Source: a virus
Lineage: Duplodnaviria > Heunggongvirae > Uroviricota > Caudoviricetes
Reading direction: 5' to 3' (one strand)
Length of the DNA: 11,496 nucleotides
Virus record (IMG/VR): IMGVR_UViG_2541047847_000003
Coordinates: 1-11,496 of that record
This document shows positions 1 through 11,496 of this stretch, in pieces. Made by a program: the position numbers and the translations under genes. A model generated the notes under the pieces. The model did not search any database, was not told the DNA's origin, and saw only the letters and a list, made by a program, of their open reading frames with translations. Within the stretch, counting starts at the first letter, position 1. Every line of letters begins with the position of its first letter.

Positions 1-95
1 AGTTTGCTCCTGCCATAACGTGAAGAAGCAATGACCTGGTGGTCCGTGACTTCCCTACGCTGGCATTATCCAGATCAGGTGATACGGGTATTTCT
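1..95 (-). promoter_or_regulatory. thiM: 3' part of the thiM TPP riboswitch (aptamer 3' half plus expression platform); thiM start codon lies just beyond the left edge
   Basis: Reverse complement of 1..95 reads AGAAAUACCCGUAUCACCUGAUCUGGAUAAUGCCAGCGUAGGGAAGUCACGGACCACCAGGUCAUUGCUUCUUCACGUUAUGGCAGGAGCAAACU, which matches the well-studied E. coli thiM thi-box leader as I recall it. Confidence 0.85.
82..95. other. attL core: 14-bp ATACGGGTATTTCT, identical to the copy at 11083..11096
   Basis: Exact 14-bp direct repeat at both island ends; flanking bases differ on both sides (81 g vs 11082 a; 96 t vs 11097 c). The repeat lies inside the riboswitch sequence. Confidence 0.75.
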
Positions 96-160
96 TACTA
101 ATTACTTTTACCAGTTGATAATAAATAAGTTTTTAAGAACGCATAAATTAAAAACCTCAG

Positions 161-235
161 AACTGACCACACAACTGACCACACATTTTGTTGAAGCTCT
201 ACGAACAACGACGAACAATAACAAACAAAAGGGAA
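161..235. repeat. attL-proximal arm block: tandem AACTGACCACAC x2 followed by ACGAACAA-type repeats; homologous to 10929..10995
   Basis: AACTGACCACAC at 161..172 and 173..184. The roughly 75-bp block is about 80% identical (by eye) to the block beside int at the other end, in the same orientation. Confidence 0.6.
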
Positions 236-1134
236 ATTTGCTGGTGGTTTTGCTTAACCGTTATCATTTTTCGGCTATCCGTCATGAAGCTGGTGGATGA
301 TCACGGATAACCAGGCATCCACAGCGCCTTAAAAAGCTGAACCCGACAAACATTTCTGCTTATCGGGTCCGATCGCTCTTTCTGCTCGTGGCAGATGAGT
401 TTATTGGGAGAGGCGGAAACATTGTATCAGGCTATCCCCTTTCTGTGCTGATTTGCATAGTTGTATATAGCTGTGCGTCCACCAGACACGCAGGAATGGA
501 GTTTGTGAGGAACTATAAATCCTGCGCAAATTTTCCCGGCCCACTCAAATTGAGTTTTCCGAAAATATCAACGGCTTAGGCCAAAGCCCGAAAAAGGGCT
601 TTGTAAAAAATTAACCTAATACGGTCGCTTTAACCTACGGTAATCGTTCTGCTTCGGTGTGTGTCCCCTCTGCGGCCATCATGACCATGCCATAACAAAA
701 ACCCCATATTCGTGGTTTTTCTGTGTCGGGGCTATTCTGCTGTTGCCGTGCTGGTGGATATTCTCCGGTATGCGACTCCCCATATCGGCATCAGGCCCAC
801 CAGCGTGAAGCGTTTTTCATTTTTCGCGGGTATAAAAAATTGATGGGGCTGGCAGTCCGGAAGACGTCAGGGTACAGAGATTTGACCCGCCCCTCCCTGT
901 GCATAAGCACAATAAGTAACAGAAGGCGGAATTCCGCCCTCGGTACTCACATATGAGAAACGATATTTCTTCCACCGATACCCTTTATTTGGGTATCGCG
1001 AGTAAGCCCCAAAATCTGGGTGTTACTCTTACTACCCAAACTACGGGTGGTTTCCGTAGTTTCATGGTCGAGTTGCAGATCTGCAACTCACCCACCAGCC
1101 AACGCAATTTTGCGTTATCGGGAATATCAGGAAT

Positions 1135-1419
1135 CTACCGCCGCAACCGTTCCGGCTTCCTCCACTGGTAAGTATTTTTCGCGCTCTCCCTCCGTTGTTG
1201 AGAACGGCGACGGTATGCCAGCAACTCAAGGACTCTGATCCGTATGTCGCGCATATCCACGCCGTTAAGCTCGATACCGTCACGGCGCATCATCTCAGCC
1301 ACCACACGCGCGTAATTTTCGGCTATCACGCTGTCCGGCTGCGTGGCCTCCTGTTTGCTTGATGGTTGTTTGATTCCGGTAACGCGGCGGATTAATCCCA
1401 GCAATTCAGATTCTGTCAT
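1135..1419 (-). CDS. Small protein immediately downstream of terS; possible lambda gpFI-like packaging accessory protein
   Basis: ORF of 94 aa. N-terminus MTESELLGLIRRVTG resembles lambda FI MTKDELIARLRSLG, and VVAEMMRRDG resembles the FI C-terminal VAAEMTERG, both from memory. The C-terminal 40 aa are basic and low-complexity. Confidence 0.45.
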   Translation of the reverse strand: MTESELLGLIRRVTGIKQPSSKQEATQPDSVIAENYARVVAEMMRRDGIELNGVDMRDIRIRVLELLAYRRRSQQRRESAKNTYQWRKPERLRR

Positions 1420-1430
1420 AGTGCGCTACG

Positions 1431-1958
1431 TTACTTGTCTTTATTCGGCTGCAACTTATCCGGCACATTTCCGGTAGTTTCCATCAGGTAATCAGCCAGT
1501 ATCTGCGGGAGGTTGTCGTCAACTCCGGCACTGGCATTACAGGCTTTAGCCACTTCCTTTTTAAGTCCATCCAGCATAGCCGGAGTCATCTGTGGGAAGC
1601 GCCTTTGCATGGTAAGCGGCAGACTGTCCATGATAGATGAAATCTGACTCGCCAGTTTGGAAAGAACATACATACAAAACTCTGTATCAATAACGTCGCC
1701 GCGTTCGCGCTCGTTTTTAAGCTCCTGCGCCTCTGCCTGTGCTGTCAGTAATCTGATCCTGACGCGTAAAAGTTCATCGTCATCAATATCGCCCGTTTCG
1801 TTTGTAATCTGACTAATTGCATTGTTAACCCGATTATCTATTACACTGGCAACATCATAGAATGCCTCACGGCCCTTACGCTCGACGGGAATCACTCCCC
1901 ACTTATCAAACGCAGTGGCGCTTACACGGCAACTTTTTGCCATGTTTTTTTTGTTCAT
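1431..1958 (-). CDS. Terminase small subunit, lambda Nu1 family
   Basis: Translation aligns with lambda Nu1: RLLTAQAEAQELKNERERGDVIDTEFCMYVLSKLASQISSIMDSLPLTMQRRFP versus RLTRAQADAQELKNARDSAEVVETAFCTFVLSRIAGEIASILDGLPLSVQRRFP. N-terminal DNA-binding region is more diverged. Start chosen at the ATG giving MNKKN; the ORF track extends to 1982. Confidence 0.85.
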   Translation of the reverse strand: MNKKNMAKSCRVSATAFDKWGVIPVERKGREAFYDVASVIDNRVNNAISQITNETGDIDDDELLRVRIRLLTAQAEAQELKNERERGDVIDTEFCMYVLSKLASQISSIMDSLPLTMQRRFPQMTPAMLDGLKKEVAKACNASAGVDDNLPQILADYLMETTGNVPDKLQPNKDK

Positions 1959-2083
1959 CAGGTGCAATTTCATTGATACCACAACTTAATTACTGTTTCA
2001 GGTTGGTGTATTGATTGTATTTTTCTCTTCTTATTCATAGAGATAGAGCGAACAACAAAACCACCACCAGCCCCCTGAAAATG

Positions 2084-2148
2084 CTCATAAATAGCGAAAA
2101 CCCGCGAGGTCGCCGCCCCGTAGCCTGCCGGATCGCCGGAAAGGACCC
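2084..2148 (-). other. Lambda-type cos site (cosQ-like and cosN; 12-nt cohesive-end sequence at 2107..2118)
   Basis: Reverse complement of 2084..2120 is ACGGGGCGGCGACCTCGCGGGTTTTCGCTATTTATGA, identical to the lambda cosN junction and left end. 2119..2148 matches the lambda right-end cosQ region at about 27 of 30 positions. Lies about 130-150 bp upstream of terS, as in lambda. Confidence 0.85.
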
Positions 2149-2174
2149 GCCAGCCAGAACGGGCCCTAATTTCA

Positions 2175-2558
2175 TCAACCAATCAACTTATAGCGACCAT
2201 CCCGTGCATTGCGACGTACACGCTCAATCTTGAGGCATAGCGCCGCATCTGGCTTTTTGGGGACAGGTACGCGGCAATATTCAGAAGCTCGAGGAATATT
2301 GTTTATCCAGTCGATCACTTCACTTAAATACCAGGCCTTACGCCCTTCCGTAACCTGTACGCGTTCGGGGAACTCTCCACGAGCCTCAAGGTTTAGCAAT
2401 GTGCGACGGCTAAGGGTAGTAAGTTCCATCACCTGATTCATATCAACAAGGCGTTCACTTAAACGCATTTTGTCAGCAATAGCCTTTAATTCCTCTACTG
2501 CTGGATCCGGATACATCATTTCGGCAATTGGCTTAAGGTCATTGTAATGATTCTGCAT
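2175..2558 (-). CDS. AlpA/Vis-family HTH protein (second copy), 127 aa
   Basis: Central segment LTTLSRRTLLNLEARGEFPERVQVTEGRKAWYLSEVIDWI matches the AlpA-type HTH pattern. GGGGGA Shine-Dalgarno 4 nt upstream of the ATG; sits between the decoration gene and cos. Confidence 0.65.
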   Translation of the reverse strand: MQNHYNDLKPIAEMMYPDPAVEELKAIADKMRLSERLVDMNQVMELTTLSRRTLLNLEARGEFPERVQVTEGRKAWYLSEVIDWINNIPRASEYCRVPVPKKPDAALCLKIERVRRNARDGRYKLIG

Positions 2559-2569
2559 TGTATCCCCCT

Positions 2570-2911
2570 TTACACACGAGCCAGCGGCTGAACAGAAATA
2601 CCTGAGCCAACAAACGCGGCAACCTTTGCCGACAGTTCTCTTACAGACTCAGGCCAGTTCAGAGCATCAACATTTAAAACACCTGTCTTATAAACCTGTG
2701 CCTGTGTTTTTTTCGCTGTGTCGATTTGTACAGCGGAAACATAAACCGCTTTGCCTGCGCTCGTTCCATCCCATACCACTAGCGCACCAGTTGCATCTTC
2801 CTGCATCAGTGGCGTAAACGCAGGTATTACCCCTTTATTGGCTGAAAATATCCCCAGCGTAGTAACCAGTGCTTCAGTGCCAGACATGAGTTCAGTGTAA
2901 TGAGTAGCCAT
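2570..2911 (-). CDS. Head decoration protein, lambda gpD-like
   Basis: 113 aa. FTPLMQEDATGALVVWDGTSAGKAV parallels lambda gpD [25 protein letters not shown]; similar length. GGGGGAG Shine-Dalgarno 9 bp after the MCP stop. Confidence 0.8.
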   Translation of the reverse strand: MATHYTELMSGTEALVTTLGIFSANKGVIPAFTPLMQEDATGALVVWDGTSAGKAVYVSAVQIDTAKKTQAQVYKTGVLNVDALNWPESVRELSAKVAAFVGSGISVQPLARV

Positions 2912-2920
2912 TGCTCCCCC

Positions 2921-3967
2921 TTAGCCAATGCGAACGGTAACAAAACGATTGATGCGGGCCGGTATTGGCTGTGGTGCTGAATGTGTCTGCACATATTCAA
3001 TAGCCGGATCACCAGGCACAATATAGTTTTTCGGTGCAAGTTCGGCTTTAGTCAGCCCCATCCGAATTAGCTCCGGATCCTGAATACCGCCATAAGCGAC
3101 AATCCCCTGAAGAGCCGTATTGCCAAGCACCATCAAATCAGGATCAAGGAAATATTTTTCAGTTCCGTCCTCGTCGGTATAACGCCCGCTGTAAACAACA
3201 ATCGCAACATCGCCCATATACCCTTTAAAACTCACCGAATCACCAAGGTCTTTAAGGGCCGTTTCCAGTTCGGAATTAGAACCTCGACGGGTATCCAGAG
3301 CCTCTTTTACAGCTCTGAATGAGCGGTATTTTTTCCATACATTGCCGCCCATAATAATGATATTAGTGACTCCCTCACTAAATTCTGCGTAGCTCTCAAT
3401 ATCATCATTTGGATCAAAAGATCCTTTATCCTTACCTGACCACTCAGCACCGCCAGACTGAGTGATGATATTTTGTGGTTTAATATTCCAGTCCAGTTCA
3501 TAACGTTCAATACCATCGCCCTCAATGATATTTTTCCCCGTTGTGATTGCCTGAACAGCAAGCCATTCAATACGTGCACGTATAGCTTTAGCCTGATTTA
3601 CAATCGCCTGTTTAACTTTAATATTACGCGCCCCAAAAGCATTGTATTGTTCAGGTGATACACCAGCAGGGCGCACAGCTAACTTATTTGGATCAATGCT
3701 GCTTTTCGGTTTCATATAGCCAGGGCGAATTGTTTTTGATTCGTATCCCTCATCTCGTGAAACTTTACTGCCCACCATAGGAGAGCAAAACGCCGCGATC
3801 GGGATATTTGGATCGTCGATCGTATCAAGAATAATGTCTCTCGATTCAAACATTACCGAGCGAGTGAAAAACAAACTGGTAAACAACGCATTTAATTTTT
3901 TTTGCACATCTTCAGCATTAGCCACCTGCACAAGCTGTGTAGGCGAATATAAATCAACCATACTCAT
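2921..3967 (-). CDS. Major capsid protein, lambda gpE family
   Basis: Long collinear similarity to lambda gpE, for example NIITQSGGAEWSGKDKGSFDPNDDIESYA and AVKEALDTRRGSNSELETALKDLG and GDVAIVVYSG. Start set at MSMVDLY (lambda begins MSMYTT) with AAGAGG just upstream; the ORF track start at 4048 is probably an upstream extension. Confidence 0.9.
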   Translation of the reverse strand: MSMVDLYSPTQLVQVANAEDVQKKLNALFTSLFFTRSVMFESRDIILDTIDDPNIPIAAFCSPMVGSKVSRDEGYESKTIRPGYMKPKSSIDPNKLAVRPAGVSPEQYNAFGARNIKVKQAIVNQAKAIRARIEWLAVQAITTGKNIIEGDGIERYELDWNIKPQNIITQSGGAEWSGKDKGSFDPNDDIESYAEFSEGVTNIIIMGGNVWKKYRSFRAVKEALDTRRGSNSELETALKDLGDSVSFKGYMGDVAIVVYSGRYTDEDGTEKYFLDPDLMVLGNTALQGIVAYGGIQDPELIRMGLTKAELAPKNYIVPGDPAIEYVQTHSAPQPIPARINRFVTVRIG

Positions 3968-4132
3968 CCTCTTTACATTCATTACAAATAATTGTGAATA
4001 TATTCTATTACCGATGTCTGCTATGCGAATACATGCAACCAAGTGCAATGTTGTATAAAATCTGCCGTGACAACTTCAGTGCTGATAATTCGTGTTAATG
4101 TATTTACTTCCTTTGGTCGGGATTTATGTAGC

Positions 4133-4171
4133 ATGCCGGAAAATCTATTTTCTTCCGGCATTTTTTTATTT
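4133..4171 (+). terminator. Intrinsic-terminator-like hairpin with T-run on the plus strand
   Basis: ATGCCGGAA (4133..4141), 11-nt loop, TTCCGGCAT (4153..4161), then TTTTTTTATTT. On the minus strand the hairpin has no U-run after it. Confidence 0.45.
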
Positions 4172-4178
4172 GCAGAAT

Positions 4179-4601
4179 TTAAAACGGTATATTATCGCCG
4201 TACGGATCATCATTCCCCGACTGTTGTTTTGCCCTGTTCAGTGCGTCAGTAGCCTGGCCCTGTTGACCTTTTTTGCCGCCCGGTCGCGCCGTTCTGGCAC
4301 TGATTACACTGTCTGCGATAACCTGCCAGCCCTGCCGCGTTTCGCCGTTCTGGCCTGTCCACTGGCTTACCTGCATGTTACCCGCCACGCTCACCAGTTC
4401 GCCTTTGTGGTGTTTTGCCAGTGCGTCGGCCTGTCTGCCAAACGCCAGGACGGATAACCACATCGTCGCCGTTCCGTCATCTGCCTGGCTGCACGGAAGT
4501 GGGACCGCCATACTCGCCATCGTCATTTGTGTACCCTTGCTGGTGGTCTTTAACTGCGGGTCAGCCACCAGCCGCCCGTAAGCCGCTATCTGTGCTGTCA
4601 T
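4179..4601 (-). CDS. Single-stranded DNA-binding protein (SSB-like)
   Basis: 140 aa with an OB-fold-like pattern (WLSVLAFGRQADALAKHHKGELVSVAGNMQVSQWTGQNGETRQ), a Gly/Gln-rich linker and a C-terminal DDPYGDNIPF resembling the SSB DDDIPF tail. Confidence 0.7.
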   Translation of the reverse strand: MTAQIAAYGRLVADPQLKTTSKGTQMTMASMAVPLPCSQADDGTATMWLSVLAFGRQADALAKHHKGELVSVAGNMQVSQWTGQNGETRQGWQVIADSVISARTARPGGKKGQQGQATDALNRAKQQSGNDDPYGDNIPF

Positions 4602-4843
4602 GCTGTCTGCTCTCCGGTTTTAACGTTGATGGTTGTCACCTGTTCCGCTTCGGCAATCTCCCGTTCTGTCAGCGTGGCAAAGTTTGCAGCTGCCGTTGTC
4701 ATGAATGAGCTAATCAGTTCGGGATGTGCTTTCGCATATCCTTCCCCGGCGTTGCGGTCGATGATTTTTATCGACACCCTTAACCAGTGTTCCGTCAAAT
4801 CAAGGGCGTGCGATTGTGATTTTTTTGTGTGCTTCGCTGTCAT
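4598..4843 (-). CDS. Hypothetical protein, 81 aa, translationally coupled to ssb
   Basis: ORF whose stop overlaps the ssb start by 4 bp (ATGA); no recognisable motifs. Confidence 0.45.
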   Translation of the reverse strand: MTAKHTKKSQSHALDLTEHWLRVSIKIIDRNAGEGYAKAHPELISSFMTTAAANFATLTEREIAEAEQVTTINVKTGEQTA

Positions 4844-4895
4844 AGGCTTTATCTCACAGCAGTAAATTAAAATTTTTGCGTTTTAACCCTTCACC

Positions 4896-5116
4896 TGTTC
4901 ACCTTTTGATATTTTATCTTTTAATTCATAATGTTAAGGGGTGAACAGTTTCACAAAAACTATTCACCAACTGTTCACCACTGTTCACCCTTGAAGCTCA
5001 ATAAACAATCAAAAAGGTGAACAGTGAATAGTTTGGTGAACAGTTCATAAATAACTGTTCACCCTATAACATACTGATACAAAAGATATTTATGACAGGG
5101 TGAACAGTGGTGAACA
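4896..5116. repeat. Origin-like iteron cluster: about 10 copies of TGTTCACC/GGTGAACA in both orientations with AT-rich spacers (P4 ori/crr type)
   Basis: TGTTCACC at 4896, 4972, 4982, 5056; GGTGAACA at 4940, 5016, 5035, 5099, 5109; variants at 4961 and 5024. Immediately downstream of the alpha-like gene. Confidence 0.85.
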
Positions 5117-5130
5117 GTTATTCCATAAGT

Positions 5131-6948
5131 TTAATTTTTGCTATCGTCATTAGTGACCGATACACATGATGGCATCCAGTCTTCTGATTCCTCCGTCAGT
5201 GTCACGTTTGAACGCAAACCGTGCTTCGTTTTCCGTTTCATATACTCCCTGCCATATTCCGCCATTGCCCCCGGCATATCTTTACCGAAGCGCGTCAGTG
5301 TTACAGGTTTACCAAACCCATGTGCCCTCATATAAGCCAGATAGGCATGATAGAGATACCTGCGTGGGCTGAATGGCACAATTTCAGCATTACCCACTAA
5401 CAGGCCATCACACATTACCGACGCCATGAGATAGCCGCAGAAGTCCACCAGCGAATCCCCCTCTCGCTTTATCGCCAGTGCTTCTTCAGATTTCTGCTGC
5501 TCATATAACAGGCGTCTGGCTTCGTCCTGGTCAGCAAACCGTGTAAGCAGATGGCGAATCACTACCGCCAACTCACCTTCTATTTTTTCCGCCAGCATTG
5601 GATCGCGTTCGTTCTCCGGTACAACTTCCGAAAAATTGAATATCACCCGACGACGTGAGATCCCCCCGCTGCGGTCACTGAATGACATGGCGTTATTGTT
5701 AACCGCCAGCACTACTGCCGGAATACGCGTTGAGTAGGGGGCTTTGTGTTTCGGGTCAATTGCCACCTTGTCACCGCCTGTAATGGCCTTAATTCCTGCC
5801 CCATCACCAGCGTAGCGGGTCATATCCGGCATGATAATCAGCGAAAAGCCAACCACTAACGCGCGTTCCCTTGCATCTTCCAGCGCCTTCATGCTTGCCG
5901 ATACTGTGTTGGCCTTACCCGCCAGCATGGTGCAAATCTCCGCCATCACGCTTTTACCACTTCCCCCTGGACCTGTTACCTCAATGAATAACTGCCAGTC
6001 GTACCGGTTCGCCAGCACCATGAATAATGCAGCCAGTACGCGATCCGCCTTGCGGTCATTCTCAGCCACCGAACGGCGTAACCACTTCCAGAAATTCGGC
6101 GCATGTGTTGCCAGCGTTTCCCCCTCTGCTGGTGGGCTGAAAGGTAATTCACTGGCAATTAACAACCAGTCGTTTTTGTTATGCTCCCGAAAATTACCTG
6201 TTCTGGTATCAAATACCCCGTTACTGAATCCAATCAGGTTACGGGCTGTATTCCCCATTACAGGCAAACTTAACTTCATGGTATCGACCGCCGATTTAAT
6301 GGCGTTCTGCGAATAGCTGATCTCTGCATCAATGAAAATCTGCGCCATAGCTCGCTGTAATTCTTTATCCTGTACTGGCTCCCATACAACGCCGTTGTAA
6401 TGGTGAACAGTGTCAGAGTCAGCATGAATCGCCAGTTCACCGCCATAATGTGCCAGGAGAACTTCGCCGCGTTGACTTGCTCCCATCTGGTTAAGCGCCA
6501 GTGATGAAGCGTTATCGTCTTTTACCCGCTCTTTTTTCTTTACAGGCAGTTCAACTACCTTTTTCTTTTCCGCCAGCTCTGCCCGTTCACGTTCCAGATA
6601 TTCGCGCCAGTTCTCCCGTTTCTGGCTGTGCATTCCTTCAGGGTAATAATCAGCATCCCTGACACCTGCCGCTGCCAGTTTCTGCCCGATGGTATTAACA
6701 AGCCCCGGACGCAATAACCCCGCCTGATAGAGACGCACGCGATAGCGTCCGTCCGGTACGATTTGCAGGTTGTCCAGTTCGGCAAGTTGTTGCTCTCCAA
6801 GCCAGACAGGAGGCACGTTATCGCCAGCCAGTCGCCCGTCCTGTTCCTGCCACTGCTTCGCATGTGCCCACGCATCACTACCCGCAAAAATGATGACTTC
6901 CGTCATTTTGTCACGCGGCTGGTGTTTTAAATTTGGCGCTTTTTTCAT
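5131..6948 (-). CDS. P4 alpha-like replication protein (primase/helicase family, D5-type P-loop NTPase)
   Basis: Walker A GPGGSGKS and a Walker B-like hydrophobic stretch; adjacent TGTTCACC iterons. Start set at the ATG giving MKKAPNL (GGAGAGAG upstream); the ORF track start at 6963 is a GTG. No primase catalytic motif was identified by eye. Confidence 0.8.
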   Translation of the reverse strand: MKKAPNLKHQPRDKMTEVIIFAGSDAWAHAKQWQEQDGRLAGDNVPPVWLGEQQLAELDNLQIVPDGRYRVRLYQAGLLRPGLVNTIGQKLAAAGVRDADYYPEGMHSQKRENWREYLERERAELAEKKKVVELPVKKKERVKDDNASSLALNQMGASQRGEVLLAHYGGELAIHADSDTVHHYNGVVWEPVQDKELQRAMAQIFIDAEISYSQNAIKSAVDTMKLSLPVMGNTARNLIGFSNGVFDTRTGNFREHNKNDWLLIASELPFSPPAEGETLATHAPNFWKWLRRSVAENDRKADRVLAALFMVLANRYDWQLFIEVTGPGGSGKSVMAEICTMLAGKANTVSASMKALEDARERALVVGFSLIIMPDMTRYAGDGAGIKAITGGDKVAIDPKHKAPYSTRIPAVVLAVNNNAMSFSDRSGGISRRRVIFNFSEVVPENERDPMLAEKIEGELAVVIRHLLTRFADQDEARRLLYEQQKSEEALAIKREGDSLVDFCGYLMASVMCDGLLVGNAEIVPFSPRRYLYHAYLAYMRAHGFGKPVTLTRFGKDMPGAMAEYGREYMKRKTKHGLRSNVTLTEESEDWMPSCVSVTNDDSKN

Positions 6949-7244
6949 TTCTGCTCTCTCCACGCGGCAATCATGTTTTTCAGTTCCTGTAGTTTTTTAT
7001 CCACATCCACACGTGACACATGGTTATTTCTGGAAGTCGGGATTTCCCGCCGGAATCTGCAAATAAAGATCTCCACGTTCAGCGAACTAAGAAATGAATA
7101 GCCATCACGAATAAAATACACACGGTCAAACATCAGTTCTTTTACCGTTACTCTGTTACCGTTCTTATCCAGATAAATAGCGCCGGGGATAATTTTGGGG
7201 TGTGCATAACCGCTGGCAGTCAAGCCAGATAAATATGTTCTCAT
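6945..7244 (-). CDS. Hypothetical protein, 99 aa, translationally coupled to the alpha-like gene
   Basis: Stop overlaps the alpha start (ATGA); no recognisable motifs. Confidence 0.55.
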   Translation of the reverse strand: MRTYLSGLTASGYAHPKIIPGAIYLDKNGNRVTVKELMFDRVYFIRDGYSFLSSLNVEIFICRFRREIPTSRNNHVSRVDVDKKLQELKNMIAAWREQK

Positions 7245-7250
7245 GATTAT

Positions 7251-7571
7251 TTATCCCCGATTTGAATCAGTATTCGCTTTCTTTATGGCATTTAATGCAT
7301 CTGTGGCATTTTCAATGGTGCACCGTAACGAAATATCAAACTGCCCAAGCATTGCCAGTAACAAACCGATATTACCCATATCAATGCGCATAGCCTTTTC
7401 GTCATAGTCCTCATTTTCTGACGCATGCCACATCAGACTACCAATTGACGCAACAGCCATTGATATATTGTCAGTAGCCCCATCCGCAGCGGAATAAACC
7501 TTTTTAGCAATATCATGCTCACAGTTAAAATGCGGATTAATCAGGTACTGGTAATTTGACATATCAGGCAT
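7251..7571 (-). CDS. Hypothetical protein, 106 aa
   Basis: ORF in the same operon; its start overlaps the stop of the upstream 67-aa ORF (ATGCCTGA). Confidence 0.55.
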   Translation of the reverse strand: MPDMSNYQYLINPHFNCEHDIAKKVYSAADGATDNISMAVASIGSLMWHASENEDYDEKAMRIDMGNIGLLLAMLGQFDISLRCTIENATDALNAIKKANTDSNRG

Positions 7572-7767
7572 GGCACACCCCCTGACGAATACGGGCGGCG
7601 AATACCATCACGCAGCCAGCCGGGGATTGCTGGCGTGCTTCCTGTTCGCTGGTGGCCACGATGTGAATCACGCGCGGTTGTGCGGTGCTCAGGGCGATAA
7701 AACGCCAGATGTATTTATTCAGGTCGTGCGAGTCCCGCCCTTGCGGGTGTGTGGTATGATTTCTCAT
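7564..7767 (-). CDS. Hypothetical small protein, 67 aa, first gene of the replication operon
   Basis: Internal ATG of the 320-aa track ORF, preceded by GAGG; the sequence upstream in that frame looks non-coding. Stop is coupled to the next gene. Confidence 0.45.
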   Translation of the reverse strand: MRNHTTHPQGRDSHDLNKYIWRFIALSTAQPRVIHIVATSEQEARQQSPAGCVMVFAARIRQGVCHA

Positions 7768-7863
7768 AGCTACCTCGATACGCTTTCTATCGTTGGTGGT
7801 TAGAAGCCCGGTTAGTGTTAGCGCACTGCCGGGTTTCGTCGTTTCTGCACCTTGCATCAACAA

Positions 7864-7917
7864 GGTGTTGAACACCAATTTAAGCCTAGGTGTTAAACAC
7901 GTCAAGTGTTGAACACT
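7864..7917. promoter_or_regulatory. Three operator-like inverted repeats (GGTGTTGAACACC, GGTGTTAAACAC, AGTGTTGAACACT) in a divergent promoter region
   Basis: Repeats at 7864..7876, 7889..7900 and 7905..7917. The third overlaps a candidate -35 (TTGAAC) placed 17 bp from CATACT for the plus-strand gene. Confidence 0.6.
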
Positions 7918-7966
7918 TATTTTTTTTCCTGCATACTGCATTTGTTTTTTGTAAGGGGTACACAAC

Positions 7967-8146
7967 ATGGCGACAAAAGCAGTAAACGCAAAATCACAAA
8001 CAGTTGCGGCAAGGGTTCCGCATGAAGTTATGAACAATGTTGAGGCGGTAAAAATGCCTGGTGAAAGTACAGGGCAGTTTGTAACAGCAGCATTAAAGCG
8101 AGAAGTTGAATACCGCCAGCGTCGCAAGGCCAAAGAGCAGGAGTAA
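7967..8146 (+). CDS. Small ribbon-helix-helix-like protein, 59 aa; candidate repressor
   Basis: Below the ORF-track length cutoff. AGGGG Shine-Dalgarno 8 nt upstream. Pattern QTVAARVPHEVMNNVEAV...GESTGQFVTAALKRE fits a beta-strand/helix/helix RHH layout. Confidence 0.5.
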   Translation: MATKAVNAKSQTVAARVPHEVMNNVEAVKMPGESTGQFVTAALKREVEYRQRRKAKEQE

Positions 8147-8203
8147 CCATCACCAGCGCCGTGGTGCGGTGAACTGTGGCGCACAGGGTTACAGGTATCT
8201 ACG

Positions 8204-8383
8204 ATGACTGACAAATCATTAAAGAAATTATCCTCATCCAAGAAAAAACAACGCAAAAATGCGGTAAACGAACATGAACCGGAGAGATTCGCACCATGTG
8301 CGTTTGTCCTTGAGAAGTACCTTAAAGAGTATTCTAGGAAAATACGCTCATTGCAGGCATGGCAGCGAATCGAGCCAGACTGA
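8204..8383 (+). CDS. Hypothetical small basic protein, 59 aa
   Basis: ORF found by hand downstream of the RHH-like gene and before the plus-strand terminator; weak Shine-Dalgarno. Confidence 0.3.
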   Translation: MTDKSLKKLSSSKKKQRKNAVNEHEPERFAPCAFVLEKYLKEYSRKIRSLQAWQRIEPD

Positions 8384-8447
8384 TAGCATTGCCCACCAGC
8401 CAACAACCTGGTATTCTGGATATGCTCAAGTTTAGTGTTATGCCACT

Positions 8448-8477
8448 GGCGACCGCCCTTGGTCGCCTTTGTTTTAT
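8448..8477 (+). terminator. Rho-independent terminator (plus strand)
   Basis: GGCGACC, loop GCCCTT, GGTCGCC, followed by TTTGTTTTAT. Confidence 0.6.
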
Positions 8478-8494
8478 GTGTCATAGCTCCCCCC

Positions 8495-8719
8495 CTACGC
8501 TGCCTTACCTGAATTAACGCGGTCACGGCTTTGCACCCAGTCCATAACTTCGGAAAGCAACCAGCCTACAGAACGCCCCCCAAGATTACGGCGAGACGGA
8601 AAGCCCCCTTTCTTCTCCAGTTCGTAGCGTGTAGTACGGCTGACGCCTGTTAACTTACGACATTCATCTTCACGAATTACGCGATCTGTTAGTGATTGAA
8701 ATTGTGTATTTTGATTCAT
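8495..8719 (-). CDS. alpA: AlpA-family transcriptional regulator / excisionase-like HTH protein
   Basis: 74 aa; RKLTGVSRTTRYELEKKGGFPSRRNLGGRSVGWLLSEVMDWV matches the AlpA/Vis-type HTH pattern; GAGGG Shine-Dalgarno. Confidence 0.8.
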   Translation of the reverse strand: MNQNTQFQSLTDRVIREDECRKLTGVSRTTRYELEKKGGFPSRRNLGGRSVGWLLSEVMDWVQSRDRVNSGKAA

Positions 8720-8822
8720 AAAAACACCCTCGAACGTAACCGAACAAGGGCATCTTATTTACCATAGCAGTTGGTGCAATATTGGAAAAATAAACTTTAT
8801 TCTAATTTATCGTTCTCCATGA

Positions 8823-9677
8823 TTAATTTTCATTAGATAACATTTTTCTTATTTTTTCTAAAGAATCGCTGCGCATTATTTTTTCTAAGAAGGGTTTTAC
8901 AGTCTGAGCAATAGCAAAGGTGTCCTTTTCACCATCAGGATACAAAGATACGGCAAGCACCCCTAATGAAATTTTTCTATCTGTAGACAACTCCCAAGAT
9001 AATAAGTCAATTAATGGGATTATCTTATAATCAATAATTTTACGTCGTATGCTCTCCCAACTTCCTGCAATTGGTTTGTCTGGCTCAACAATTGAAAGTT
9101 CACTACGCCATTTTGGTAATAGTTTTGTAAACGCTTCAATCAACTCATCATCTCTGTTATGTAGTAAGTCAACAGAAACAAGCATATTATCTAATGTATC
9201 AGAAAGGAGATTCACTGGTTCACGCATCACAGCCCAAAACATCCCATTATCTTCTGATATTAAACTTCCAACCATCTCATTATCTATGATGATTGGTTTA
9301 TCCTTCCAATATCCTCTTTCCGCAGTCAGTTTATTAATCATTGATATATCAAACCTTGTTACAGGTTTAATTCCATCATCATAACTTAGCTCAATTAACT
9401 TCGGCTGCACTTTATGGTCATATTCTTTTTGTTTATCACAAAACCAATCGTCTTCTTTCAGCTCTCCAAATGGATCCCCATAATTATTATGCAACGGGTA
9501 TTCAGCACCAAACATAAAACCATATTCAGGCATCTCAGAATGTTTCATTGTTAAATCATCTTGTCGCCAATATAATTGGCGAAATAGATCTTTATCCGAC
9601 AAGTTTTCTAGGCAATCATATTTGCCTAAATCAAATGACTTTGGTAAATCTTTTTTACTATTTACTTTTTTCGTCAT
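8823..9677 (-). CDS. Hypothetical 284-aa protein, AT-rich cargo gene immediately downstream of int
   Basis: Long ORF whose start overlaps the int stop by 4 bp. Visibly more AT-rich than the neighbouring genes (not computed). No motif I recognise. Confidence 0.7.
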   Translation of the reverse strand: MTKKVNSKKDLPKSFDLGKYDCLENLSDKDLFRQLYWRQDDLTMKHSEMPEYGFMFGAEYPLHNNYGDPFGELKEDDWFCDKQKEYDHKVQPKLIELSYDDGIKPVTRFDISMINKLTAERGYWKDKPIIIDNEMVGSLISEDNGMFWAVMREPVNLLSDTLDNMLVSVDLLHNRDDELIEAFTKLLPKWRSELSIVEPDKPIAGSWESIRRKIIDYKIIPLIDLLSWELSTDRKISLGVLAVSLYPDGEKDTFAIAQTVKPFLEKIMRSDSLEKIRKMLSNEN

Positions 9678-10894
9678 TGTATCCCTCTCAATATCACAAT
9701 ATTTTCATTATATCCTGCAATCATATCAAGACGCTCAACCCATAGATGCAGTGCGTCCCGTTTCGCCTGCAAATAGCGTGAATGGTTATAGGTTTTTTGC
9801 TGACCTGGCATCTGATGCGCTGTGATGTGCTCCACGATATGCGGATCGACACCTAAATCATTCAGCATAGTTGTAAACGTGTGTCGGAAATCATGCAGCG
9901 TCCAGTGTTCCTGCTTAAGCCGCTTATGCGCATTTCGTCCATATTGCGCCACCGTGGTATCTTTTTTCAGTTCGCCGAGTAATAACCCAGTGTGTGCGTT
10001 TTGCTCCACCAGCTTCTGAATGAACGGCAAAATACCATCAGGAATAGGTCGGAATATTGTTACCTTCGTTTTGCTGTGCTCTTTTGGCACTGTCCACAAC
10101 ATTTCTTTCAGATCCCATTCTTTGATCTCTGAAAGTCTGATCTCTGCCGTTCTGCACCCGAACACAATTAACAAGCGCATTAACGCACTGTAATAGGGAG
10201 CGAACACATCACCATCAATAGCGCGTAGAATTTCTTTTAGTTCGCTGTTGCTGTGCACTCTCTCGCGGATTTCTGCTCTCTTACCCACATCAGTAACGAT
10301 CAAATCGTCCAGGGCGTTGCTAAACGCGTAGCGCCGCCTGCGGCAAAACTTTAGCGCCTGTTTGCATGTCTGCATGACATGGCCCGCTGCTACTGGTGCT
10401 TTTTTTCGTACGCGGTCAAAACATGCGATCCACTGCCTTGTATCACACTTATCAAGGGGAATTGCCCCGATATGGCAAATGATGTGCTTATCCATACGCT
10501 GCACCAGCTTTATGTAATCTTTGCGGTTATCCTTCGCGTATTCCTCCAGCCAGTAGTTAATCGCTTCCTTCACCGTAACGGGTTTTAGTGCTTCCTGTAC
10601 TGTGGCGCACAACTCATACCGAGGGTTTTTACCCTCAGCCAGCCATGCCCGGCACTGTGTTCGCTTTTCCCTTGCAGATTTCAGCGACAATTCCGGGTAA
10701 GCCCCCAGCTTTAACCGCTCTGCGGCAACCTCACGGCCTCCCGTTCGGTACCGGAAATACCAGGTTAATTTACCTCCCTTTGAGTGTTTAATCTCCAGCC
10801 CGCCCCCGTCGGAGTAAAAACGTTCTTTTTCTGCCTGGACAGCCACCAATTTTTTTAACGTTGAATCGCTCAGTTTGTTTAGTGCTTTTCCCAC
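9674..10894 (-). CDS. int: Tyrosine recombinase, P4-type integrase family
   Basis: 406 aa. N-terminal arm-binding-type region (GGKLTWYFRYRTGGREV...LGAYPELSLKSAREK); C-terminal catalytic motifs HDFRHTF and YNHSRY; GTG start. Confidence 0.9.
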   Translation of the reverse strand: MGKALNKLSDSTLKKLVAVQAEKERFYSDGGGLEIKHSKGGKLTWYFRYRTGGREVAAERLKLGAYPELSLKSAREKRTQCRAWLAEGKNPRYELCATVQEALKPVTVKEAINYWLEEYAKDNRKDYIKLVQRMDKHIICHIGAIPLDKCDTRQWIACFDRVRKKAPVAAGHVMQTCKQALKFCRRRRYAFSNALDDLIVTDVGKRAEIRERVHSNSELKEILRAIDGDVFAPYYSALMRLLIVFGCRTAEIRLSEIKEWDLKEMLWTVPKEHSKTKVTIFRPIPDGILPFIQKLVEQNAHTGLLLGELKKDTTVAQYGRNAHKRLKQEHWTLHDFRHTFTTMLNDLGVDPHIVEHITAHQMPGQQKTYNHSRYLQAKRDALHLWVERLDMIAGYNENIVILRGIQ

Positions 10895-10928
10895 TATCAG
10901 ATCCTCTTTTCAGTCCTCCAGCCTCAAA

Positions 10929-10995
10929 AAACTGACCACACAACTGACCACACATTTCGCTGAAACTCGGCAAACAACAACGAACAGCAACAAAC
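10929..10995. repeat. int-proximal arm block: tandem AACTGACCACAC x2 plus CAACAACGAACA-type repeats; homologous to 161..235
   Basis: AACTGACCACAC at 10929..10940 and 10941..10952, about 30 bp upstream of the int start. Confidence 0.6.
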
Positions 10996-11082
10996 GAGAA
11001 AGCCAATTAAATCATTGTATATCAAACATATACACAAACAATCACGAACATCCCAGAACTACAAAAAACACTAAATGAGAAA

Positions 11083-11096
11083 ATACGGGTATTTCT
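11083..11096. other. attR core: ATACGGGTATTTCT
   Basis: Identical to 82..95; continuous on its right with chromosomal thiM leader sequence. Confidence 0.75.
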
Positions 11097-11127
11097 CAGC
11101 CTTCACAAAGAAGGGCACCCCGAGTCG
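11083..11127 (-). promoter_or_regulatory. thiM: 5' part of the thiM TPP riboswitch aptamer, separated from its 3' half by the island
   Basis: Reverse complement reads CGACUCGGGGUGCCCUUCUUUGUGAAGGCUGAGAAAUACCCGUAU, the 5' half of the thiM aptamer including the conserved CUGAGA element. Confidence 0.8.
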
Positions 11128-11223
11128 TTTGGTTGCGATAATAAATCGCAGAGGAGGATGGTAATGTCCAGCGCACGCGTTGTAAACGGGGAAAAACGGC
11201 GGTATTACAATAACGTTGTGAAA

Positions 11224-11496
11224 TTATTTGATATAAGAATCCAGCACCTTCAGAACGACATCCAGATCTTCTTCTCGTTTTAGCTCATCCCCCTGGTGAA
11301 CGATGTGTTCCGTCAGATGGCCTTTAATCACTTCCCGCATCAGACCGTTTACCGCGCCACGGATAGCAGCAATCTGTTGTAAAACTGCAGCGCATTCATG
11401 CGGTTCGTCGAGCATTTTCTTGAGCGCCACGACCTGGCCCTGAATCTTACTGGCACGCGCTTTCAGTTTCTGTTTATCACGGATTGTATGAGACAT
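11224..11496 (-). CDS. rcnR: Ni/Co-responsive transcriptional repressor RcnR (CsoR/RcnR family)
   Basis: 90-aa translation [61 protein letters not shown]... matches E. coli RcnR as I recall it; complete CDS ending at the window edge. Confidence 0.85.

Follow-up and report, generated by a model that had tools for sequence, protein, structure and literature searches.

Satellites packaged through cohesive-end (cos) sites are known to use two routes into helper capsids. The first, taken by P4 and SaPIbov5, is to copy the whole cos of the helper; these satellites encode no small terminase subunit (TerS) and are served by the helper's cos-type terminase. The second, found in the Escherichia coli island EcCICFT073, depends on Rpp. 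In the pac (headful) system of SaPIs, as pathogenicity islands of Staphylococcus aureus are called, the satellite TerS belongs to another fold family and works with Ppi, a protein that blocks the helper TerS. The SaPI protein, TerS-S, is a TerS homologue encoded without terL, the gene for the large terminase subunit (TerL), and was proposed to use the helper TerL at a satellite-specific site (PMC6739421). Rpp proteins are 135-154 aa long and have a DNA-binding domain (DBD) and an oligomerisation domain of their own without the TerL-binding C terminus (PMC9026076). Phage-inducible chromosomal islands (PICIs) with a TerS are already published as a group, EcCIIHE3034 and EcCI18098 having been noted to "encode TerS" (PMC6092414), and our literature search found no later study of these two TerS proteins. 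Here we analyze positions 1 to 11,496 of IMG/VR virus record IMGVR_UViG_2541047847_000003 (the window, meaning the whole 11,496-nucleotide stretch), which by its gene content is a Gram-negative cos PICI of ~10.8 kb, a phage-satellite island of E. coli. In the searchable literature, a cos-type satellite TerS with a private, N15-like cosB that is exchangeable with rpp is uncharacterized.

The TerS gene and its cos site

The gene at issue is a minus-strand open reading frame (ORF) that a first-pass annotation, made from the sequence letters, had called a Nu1-like TerS at 1431-1958. That assignment holds. The ORF matches Pfam PF07471 Phage_Nu1 at 87.4 bits (cut-off 30; E=1.1e-24) and PHROG 57, terminase small subunit (E=5.7e-54), and BLASTP aligns the protein with lambda Nu1 at 35% identity over 178 aa (E=1e-35). 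By these matches it is a genuine member of the Nu1 family. The first-pass start, ATG 1958, gives 175 aa and the longest ORF opens at GTG 1982; the start codon is probably ATG 1973, 15 nt upstream of 1958, because the RefSeq homologues begin there, and the protein then begins MKLHLMNKK. The TerS is an orphan, since its gene sits downstream of cosB but is followed by a 94-aa ORF rather than by terL. No terL was found in the window, which agrees with the first-pass view of the element as a satellite, nor was a lambda-A-like terL found within 2.5 kb in any of 80 related IMG/VR loci. The features of the cos-terS region are as follows, lambda bp n corresponding to window coordinate 2119-n.

2142..2148, minus strand: cosQ core GGGTCCT (-30..-24 relative to the cohesive end), an exact match to the conserved block GGGTCCTTTCCGG
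2107..2118, minus strand: cosN cohesive-end sequence GGGCGGCGACCT, identical to that of lambda, with a single match in the window
2051..2080, minus strand: cosB site A, the R3 equivalent, TTTCAGGGGGCTGGTGGTGGTTTTGTTGTT, bp 39-68
2061-2069: inner core of site A, TGGTGGTGG
1996..2012, minus strand: cosB site B, inverted, R2-like, AATACACCAACCTGAAA (reverse complement TTTCAGGTTGGTGTATT), bp 107-123
1975..1988, minus strand: cosB site C, direct, R1-like, TAAGTTGTGGTATC, bp 131-144, abutting ATG 1973
1431..1973, minus strand: terS, 180 aa from ATG 1973, stop codon 1431-1433
1824..1973, minus strand: N-terminal winged helix-turn-helix (HTH) DBD, aa 1-50, a winged HTH by predicted secondary-structure pattern and N15 type by sequence identity
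1584..1763, minus strand: central region, aa 71-130, equivalent by alignment to the Nu1 self-association domain
1470..1583, minus strand: C-terminal region, aa 131-168, equivalent by alignment to the lambda Nu1 TerL-binding domain
1434..1469, minus strand: PICI-specific C-terminal tail, aa 169-180, motif TTGNVP[DE]KL

The cosQ and cosN elements are lambda-like, as first read: 28 of 31 positions on the cosQ side (-31..-1) and 40 of 42 at +1..+42 are identical to lambda. Over +43..+145 only 39 of 103 positions are identical in ungapped comparison (shuffled sequences give 27.2 +/- 4.4), and a local alignment search of this segment against lambda found nothing significant. The cosB spans 1975-2080, in agreement with the ~1983-2083 first given for an intervening region unlike lambda. 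Its putative sites A, B, and C lie direct, inverted, and direct, a layout that mirrors lambda R3, R2, and R1. Conservation was read from the 80 IMG/VR loci, which encode related TerS proteins (83-100% identity) and hold 50 distinct sequences of this cos (cos1). Site A retains a near-invariant core, TGGTGGTGGTTTTGTTGTT (bp 50-68), across these 50 sequences, and ACACCAACCTGAA in site B (bp 110-122; 1997-2009) is the best-conserved non-coding block, with a majority frequency of 0.97, conserved more than cosN itself. Site C varies among relatives (0.86). Sites A and B form a 12-13 nt inverted repeat in EcCIIHE3034 (locus L015) and in two further islands, L006 and L007, and in L006 and L015 site C, GTTGGTGTATT, repeats site B perfectly over 11 nt in inverted orientation. 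Where the adjacent terS genes of two islands show a synonymous divergence of 0.56-0.88, cosB is 80-95% conserved and is therefore constrained. No sigma-70 promoter or convincing terminator was found around cos-terS.

Cohesive ends vary among the relatives. At cos1 bp 1-12 the IMG/VR loci (L017-L096) carry GGGCGGCGACCT, GGGCGTCAGGCG, GGGCGGAAGGCG, GGGCGGCAGACG, GGGCGGCTGACG, GGGCGGAGACCT, or GGGCGTCGACCT, and the same cosB-terS cassette adjoins no fewer than three kinds of cosQ-side flank. These varied ends and flanks suggest repeated recombination with the cos sites of different helpers.

Comparison of the TerS with lambda Nu1 domain by domain, the check proposed in the first-pass annotation, bears out a contrast between the N- and C-terminal parts, although a modest one. 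Residues 1-65 share 18 identities with Nu1 and require two indels, whereas the C half (66-163) is 45% identical to lambda and 45% to N15. Calling this half close to lambda Nu1 was an overstatement, since lambda and N15 TerS share 78% identity in these segments. Nor is the half uniform. Conservation with phage TerS proteins is highest in the central region (identity of 55% with lambda, 53% with N15, and 62% with the TerS of a lambdoid prophage, L008), whereas the TerL-binding-equivalent end (the last ~38 aa) is the least lambda-like part (30%, 32%, and 47%, respectively). The end does keep the family motif [LIV]P..L..[DE]Y[LI]; the C-terminal helix reads LPQILADYL. Beyond it lies the tail, whose motif TTGNVP[DE]KL is common to the PICI TerS proteins (T167, G168, V170, P171, and K173 are invariant in the alignment); it was not found in phage TerS proteins, the alignments of which end before the tail.

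Structure prediction and structural searches gave a limited picture. Of the AlphaFold2 (AF2) model only the N-terminal secondary-structure pattern was used: residues 1-58 show the beta-alpha-alpha-beta-beta-alpha order of a winged HTH at pLDDT 65-77. The top Foldseek match was a phage TerS DBD, 7lwr (TMt 0.73), at a non-significant E=0.08, and every other match was also weak (all E>0.08). A PDB sequence search with the TerS returned nothing relevant, the lambda Nu1 DBD and RppC being unmatched at E<=1; neither the Pfam profile nor the PDB sequence search covers the DBD. Searching a protein database with the N-terminal 87 aa returned E. coli fragments only, which did not broaden the picture of the DBD lineage. 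A 194-aa fusion (P0034) is encoded on one E. coli contig, in which residues 1-82 of the decoration protein run in frame into TerS from LRVRIRLL, a deletion that removes the AlpA-like gene, the cos, and the TerS DBD.

The DNA-binding domain and cosB as a pair

The DBD is identical to that of N15 gp1 at 24 of 40 positions (60%), versus 17 of 40 with indels for lambda, and the recognition helix TAFDKWGV differs from N15 QAFDKWGV at one of eight residues. N15 is also the best match in the phage database (47.8% overall), and the island domain shares the short architecture of N15. By these identities the domain belongs to the N15 specificity lineage; it is diverged from lambda, as first noted, but is not a lambda domain that has drifted.

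The N15 lineage has been studied genetically. The terminases of lambda and 21 do not package N15-cos DNA, whereas an N15-specific terminase is able to package lambda DNA (PMC4669245). In the hybrid lambda-N15hy4 the N15 cosB and the 5' part of N15 terS are joined to the 3' half of Nu1, and the phage is viable with lambda TerL (PMC4669245). The island mirrors this architecture of an N15-type cosB and DBD on a lambda-family C half, known here from sequence. In the Monarch group the recognition helix was described as identical to that of N15 (PMC4669245), and the three-site layout of the Monarch subgroup resembles that of the window cosB. Note that N15 and Monarch are phages or prophages with a terL of their own, and that the window cosN is that of lambda rather than that of N15.

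The window shares with N15 not only the DBD type but also G/T-triplet-rich R-like sites. Site A lies in the register of N15 R3 (GAGGTTGTTGTT, bp 48-59), to which it is identical at 8 of 13 positions over bp 48-60 (4 of 13 for site A against lambda); at the critical bp 54-59 the window reads GGTGGT and N15 GTTGTT, the GGT versus GTT difference that separates the R sequences of the two systems. Taken from the window alone, the case for N15-like R sites is weak, and it depends chiefly on the homology of the DBD and the conservation seen across relatives.

Of the comparative evidence, natural domain swaps argue most strongly that the TerS reads its neighboring cosB. When the TerS C half was used as a query, the search returned two protein classes, one of 180 aa with the N15-type DBD and one of 193/194 aa. 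The N half of the longer class is nearly identical to the TerS of CFT073 phage 4 (P0080) or of the lambdoid prophage L008 (P0099), and certain 180-aa PICI proteins (P0014, P0050) have an identical C half, the tail TTGNVP[DE]KL included. The junction falls near AQELKN, at the N-terminal edge of the central region, and the chimeras sit in PICIs without terL. The type of cosB follows the type of DBD. In all 80 IMG/VR loci and in L006, L007, and EcCIIHE3034, the N15-type DBD is paired with a cosB containing (GGT)n, TGGTGGTGGTTTTGTTGTT, and ACACCAACCTGAA, whereas beside a phage-4-type or L008-type N half (P0080, P0099, P0105) the cosB carries the CATGTCGG R3/R2/R1 sites of those phages. By this comparison DBD type and cosB type have been exchanged together, independently at least twice, which supports reading of the adjacent cosB by the TerS and bears out the pairing of a distinct TerS with a distinct cosB proposed in the first-pass annotation. 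The swaps also point to phage-4-type and L008/PhiR5_1-type lambdoid phages as partners in recombination and as candidates for the helper.

Retention of the PICI C half in the chimeras does not itself require selection, because there is no phage homology downstream of terS and the distal crossover must therefore fall within the gene. We also looked for a phage or prophage TerS that stands beside terL and has a PICI-type C half. None was found: the 193/194-aa proteins with this C half are themselves PICI-borne, and the best phage match is 53%.

The cassette is common and its gene is under constraint. Of 5,426 complete E. coli genomes, 763 (14%) match the cos-terS segment with a coverage of >=80%, and among the matches listed the small subunit is the sole annotated terminase gene under the match. 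An O157:H7 island beside phoQ, the EcCICFT073 integration site, carries the same cassette, as do extraintestinal pathogenic E. coli (ExPEC) strains. The ratio of nonsynonymous to synonymous divergence (dN/dS) of terS against its relatives is 0.10-0.17 overall, 0.03-0.16 in the DBD, and 0.17-0.33 over the last 50 residues. The gene is therefore judged functional and under purifying selection, and within the PICI lineage the DBD comes out as the most constrained part and the C terminus as the least. These values run against the first-pass description of a conserved TerL-interaction half, the C-terminal end being the fastest evolving.

The same data make it scarcely credible that terS is a functionless remnant of captured phage late genes, with only the cos mattering. 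PICIs do capture helper late genes (PMC10111431), and EcCICFT073 was reported to need neither its capsid nor its decoration homologue for transfer or interference (PMC6092414). However, besides its low dN/dS, the ORF is intact in the 763 genomes, exists in 33 distinct protein variants, and belongs to a lineage separate from all phage TerS proteins found, whose C-half identity to it does not exceed 56%. Moreover, its ATG lies at bp 146 in 61 of 62 related loci with a locatable cosN match, with frame and length likewise fixed.

Proposed TerL recruitment and competing models

Beyond the observed anatomy, homologies, co-inheritance of DBD and cosB, absence of terL, and purifying selection, we infer DNA binding by the PICI TerS, recruitment of TerL, and the identity of helpers. 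In the model we prefer, the lambda-type cosQ and cosN would be substrates for the nuclease and termination functions of a lambdoid helper TerL. The N15-type winged HTH of the PICI TerS would bind the private cosB at site A (bp ~50-68) and at the inverted site B (bp ~107-123), the protein would self-associate via its central domain, and its C-terminal domain would bring the helper TerL to the adjacent cosN. PICI concatemers would then be cut and packaged into helper capsids during lytic growth of the helper, with cosQ serving termination, and the lambda-type TerS of the helper would be unable to read the private cosB. Such redirection of the helper TerL onto island DNA, the function first suggested for this locus, is workable because of the published N15/lambda chimera genetics. 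The TerS-cosB specificity module and the chimera precedent speak for it, but its weak point is the TerL-interaction half, first described as conserved, whose TerL-binding-equivalent end is the least lambda-like part. We consider redirection plausible though unproven, and somewhat more probable than its negation.

Several observations weigh against it. With the phage and prophage TerS proteins examined, the TerL-binding-equivalent region shares no more than 30-47% identity. No phage TerS in INPHARED matches the last 85 aa at more than 53%, and the closest prophage TerS, that of L008, reaches 47% in the TerL-binding-equivalent segment. Among the helper TerL proteins of lambda, N15, phage 4, and L008 the N termini (first 48 aa), which are the part that binds TerS, are hypervariable and 38-50% identical (38-46% when lambda, phage 4, and L008 are compared), although the TerL proteins of phage 4 and L008 are 95% identical outside the N terminus. 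The C termini of the TerS proteins of these two are 39% identical. Thus the canonical TerS-TerL interface seems to diversify in pairs and to be partner-specific, and no helper TerL matching the island protein was identified. Resident prophages did not mobilize EcCIIHE3034 or EcCI18098 (PMC6092414). For the full TerS the AF2 model is poor (mean pLDDT 56). Site C is degenerate in the window, where a repeat finder detects no inverted repeat, and no integration host factor (IHF) consensus was found between sites A and B at <=1 mismatch. Finally, site B and bp 57-68 each match N15 R3 at 9 of 12 positions, a score reached by 10% of shuffles. The TerL partner of the island, or any binding to TerL, cannot be read from sequence.

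The main rival is an Rpp-like mode, in which the PICI TerS would co-assemble with the helper TerS via the central domain; the PICI DBDs would read the PICI cosB, the helper subunits would provide the TerL-binding C termini, and recognition of the helper cosB would be poisoned. This alternative draws on the relationship between the islands. In EcCICFT073 (locus L005) and EcCIIHE3034 two stretches agree at ~95% identity, one running from the capsid gene to cosN+42 and one starting at a second inverted cos; between these flanks lie cosB and rppA in the former and cosB and terS in the latter. The TerS of EcCIIHE3034 is 88% identical (158/180) to that of the window, with the same cosB and its ATG at bp 146. 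The window terS thus fills the exact rppA slot, after a cos with lambda-type cosQ and cosN and a non-phage cosB. Both proteins begin with a winged HTH, and their purpose, the retargeting of helper packaging to the island, is presumably shared.

The exchange of this one cassette between EcCICFT073 and EcCIIHE3034 therefore favors the Rpp-like mode, as does the finding that conservation with helper TerS proteins is best in the central region (48-62%) rather than at the TerL-binding end (30-47%). Helper TerL N termini are too diverse for one PICI C terminus to fit them all, and Rpp is thought to derive from TerS (PMC6739421). On the other hand, no relationship to RppA goes beyond a weak winged-HTH match: BLASTP gave E=6.2 over 17 aa, and hhalign aligned only aa 4-48 (the winged HTH) with Rpp, at a probability of 15%. 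Rpp proteins lack the C-terminal domain (PMC9026076), whereas the PICI TerS keeps it, with an extra tail, under purifying selection, which argues that the C terminus is used. Moreover, the TerS surfaces that Rpp contacts are the DBD and helix alpha-3 rather than the central domain. Weighing these points we regard the Rpp-like mode as rather unlikely, while the most serious of the alternatives.

The possibility that the window TerS is itself an Rpp was considered and rejected on sequence, length, and domain content, the TerS having 180 aa with Nu1-type central and C-terminal regions and Rpp 135-154 aa. The triplets of the two cosB types can also be compared. TerS-type PICIs have (GGT)3-4 at bp ~47-59, and EcCICFT073 has the reverse complement, CACCACCACCAC, on the same strand at bp 54-65 (L005:7611-7622), which is the proposed Rpp site; its window counterpart is 2061-2069. 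Rpp islands thus carry an (ACC)n cosB and TerS islands a (GGT)n cosB on the same strand, and their DBDs are of different lineages.

A further model arises from a second cos. In many related PICIs the interval from terS or rppA to the 93/94-aa gene contains another cos, inverted and with R sites CAGATCC... or CATGTCGG..., which 27 of the 80 IMG/VR loci have; in the window none was found, variant cohesive ends allowed for. Examples, each with a phage-type cosB, are:

L005:8100-8310, minus strand: second inverted cos of EcCICFT073
L006:9700-9883, minus strand: second inverted cos
L015:10200-10378, minus strand: second inverted cos of EcCIIHE3034
L012:8600-8790, minus strand: second inverted cos

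The orphan TerS might accordingly be an interference factor that titrates helper TerL or binds helper cos, packaging proceeding via the helper TerS at the phage-type cos. Besides the phage-type cosB of these second sites, the ability of an N15-specific terminase to package lambda DNA (PMC4669245) is in line with binding of helper cos by an N15-type DBD, and satellites commonly couple packaging with interference. We nonetheless judge this improbable: the single cos of the window has a private cosB, so its packaging cannot rely on a phage-type cosB, and the strict co-inheritance and conservation of DBD and private cosB would be needless for pure interference.

Returning to redirection of the helper TerL by a full-length satellite TerS, a parallel is SaPI TerS-S of SaPI1 and SaPIbov1, which is likewise satellite-borne without terL. 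The SaPI system differs in being of the pac type, whereas that of the window is cos-based and Nu1-type, and no Ppi-like partner was identified. P4 and SaPIbov5 resemble the window in having a satellite cos site and, presumably, in using a helper cos-type terminase, but the window encodes its own TerS, and its cosB does not resemble that of lambdoid prophages in E. coli.

The island and the meaning of its cassette

Nearly all credible genes of the window are on the minus strand, judged from the ORF list and family profile matches, and no Rfam family matched in the window. In addition to cos and terS the island contains the following.

161-226 and 10930-10995: imperfect 66-nt direct repeats, 86% identical, the first ~28 nt identical
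9674-10894, minus strand: tyrosine integrase (profile match)
within the island: DUF6387 gene (profile match)
8495-8719, minus strand: AlpA (profile match)
within the island: DUF4222 gene (profile match)
5131-6963, minus strand: D5/DUF5906 primase (profile match)
5034-5128: iterons TGGTGAACAGTT..., just downstream of the primase gene
within the island: single-stranded DNA-binding protein (SSB) gene (profile match)
2921-4048, minus strand: lambda gpE-like major capsid protein, 375-aa ORF (homologues 351 aa)
2570-2911, minus strand: gpD-like decoration protein (profile match)
2175-2558, minus strand: second AlpA-family protein, 127 aa (PF05930, PHROG 2790), directly upstream of cos
1135-1419, minus strand: 94-aa gene of unassigned function (PHROG 1561, no Pfam match), beginning 11 nt past the terS stop

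The direct repeats are likely attL and attR, bounding the ~10.8-kb element, and the iterons occupy the expected position of the PICI replication origin. Hence the hallmarks of a PICI are present: int, alpA, pri with a downstream iteron ori, unidirectional genes, a size in the ~10-15 kb class, and att repeats. The right end of the window holds a chromosomal gene (11224-11496, minus strand) that we take to resemble rcnR, so that the island presumably lies beside rcnR, unlike EcCIIHE3034 and EcCI18098. The nearest complete E. coli genomes contain the same island at 97.5% identity.

The gene layout matches that of EcCICFT073, and identity to the window proteins is 54% for its capsid protein, 54% for its decoration protein, and 68% for its 93-aa protein. 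Gene order is also that of EcCIIHE3034 and EcCI18098 (major capsid protein, decoration protein, cos, terS, 93/94-aa gene), from which the window differs in its backbone, in its major capsid protein DNA (~65% identical), in an AlpA-like gene in place of a 137-aa gene, and in lacking the second inverted cos. That unrelated 137-aa protein fills the AlpA-like slot in EcCICFT073, EcCIIHE3034, and the O157 island. The 94-aa protein, whose 93-aa relative lies downstream of rppA in EcCICFT073, is encoded in every related island examined and is a constant partner of the packaging cassette, downstream of both the terS and rppA types. In the ~1-kb region between alpA and the DUF4222 gene, a putative 320-aa ORF on the minus strand (7564-8526) that matches no family is overlapped by two putative plus-strand ORFs of 59 aa each (7967-8146 and 8204-8383), which match no Pfam entry.

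In eight viral contigs of 47-60 kb (L019, L020, L025, L039, L057, and L073-L075) the cassette lies ~31-35 kb into the contig. These phage-sized contigs may be PICIs adjoining or embedded in a prophage and could identify helpers; helper-embedded PICIs have been described (PMC10111431).

More broadly, and only tentatively, the region may be an exchangeable packaging-specificity cassette, made up of cosB and 5' terS or of cosB and rpp, and bounded by cosQ-cosN and often by the second inverted cos. It would confer a private N15-like specificity that a resident lambda-type TerS cannot read, with the PICI-specific C half and tail capturing a lambdoid TerL. This broader proposal is possible, though doubtful.

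The natural chimeras, with an N15-type or helper-type DBD on one PICI C half, are material for partitioning the DNA and TerL specificities of TerS, for revisiting the non-mobilization reported in 2018, and for the origin of Rpp, and such knowledge would help in designing delivery particles, cosmid- or PICI-based, whose packaging signals are orthogonal. Among cos systems, a satellite TerS that is full-length and has a cosB of its own would correspond to the TerS strategy of the SaPIs. If the cassette proposal is true, it would constitute a third route for cos satellites, beside copying of the helper cos and Rpp, and could be the full-length, ancestor-like state from which Rpp arose.

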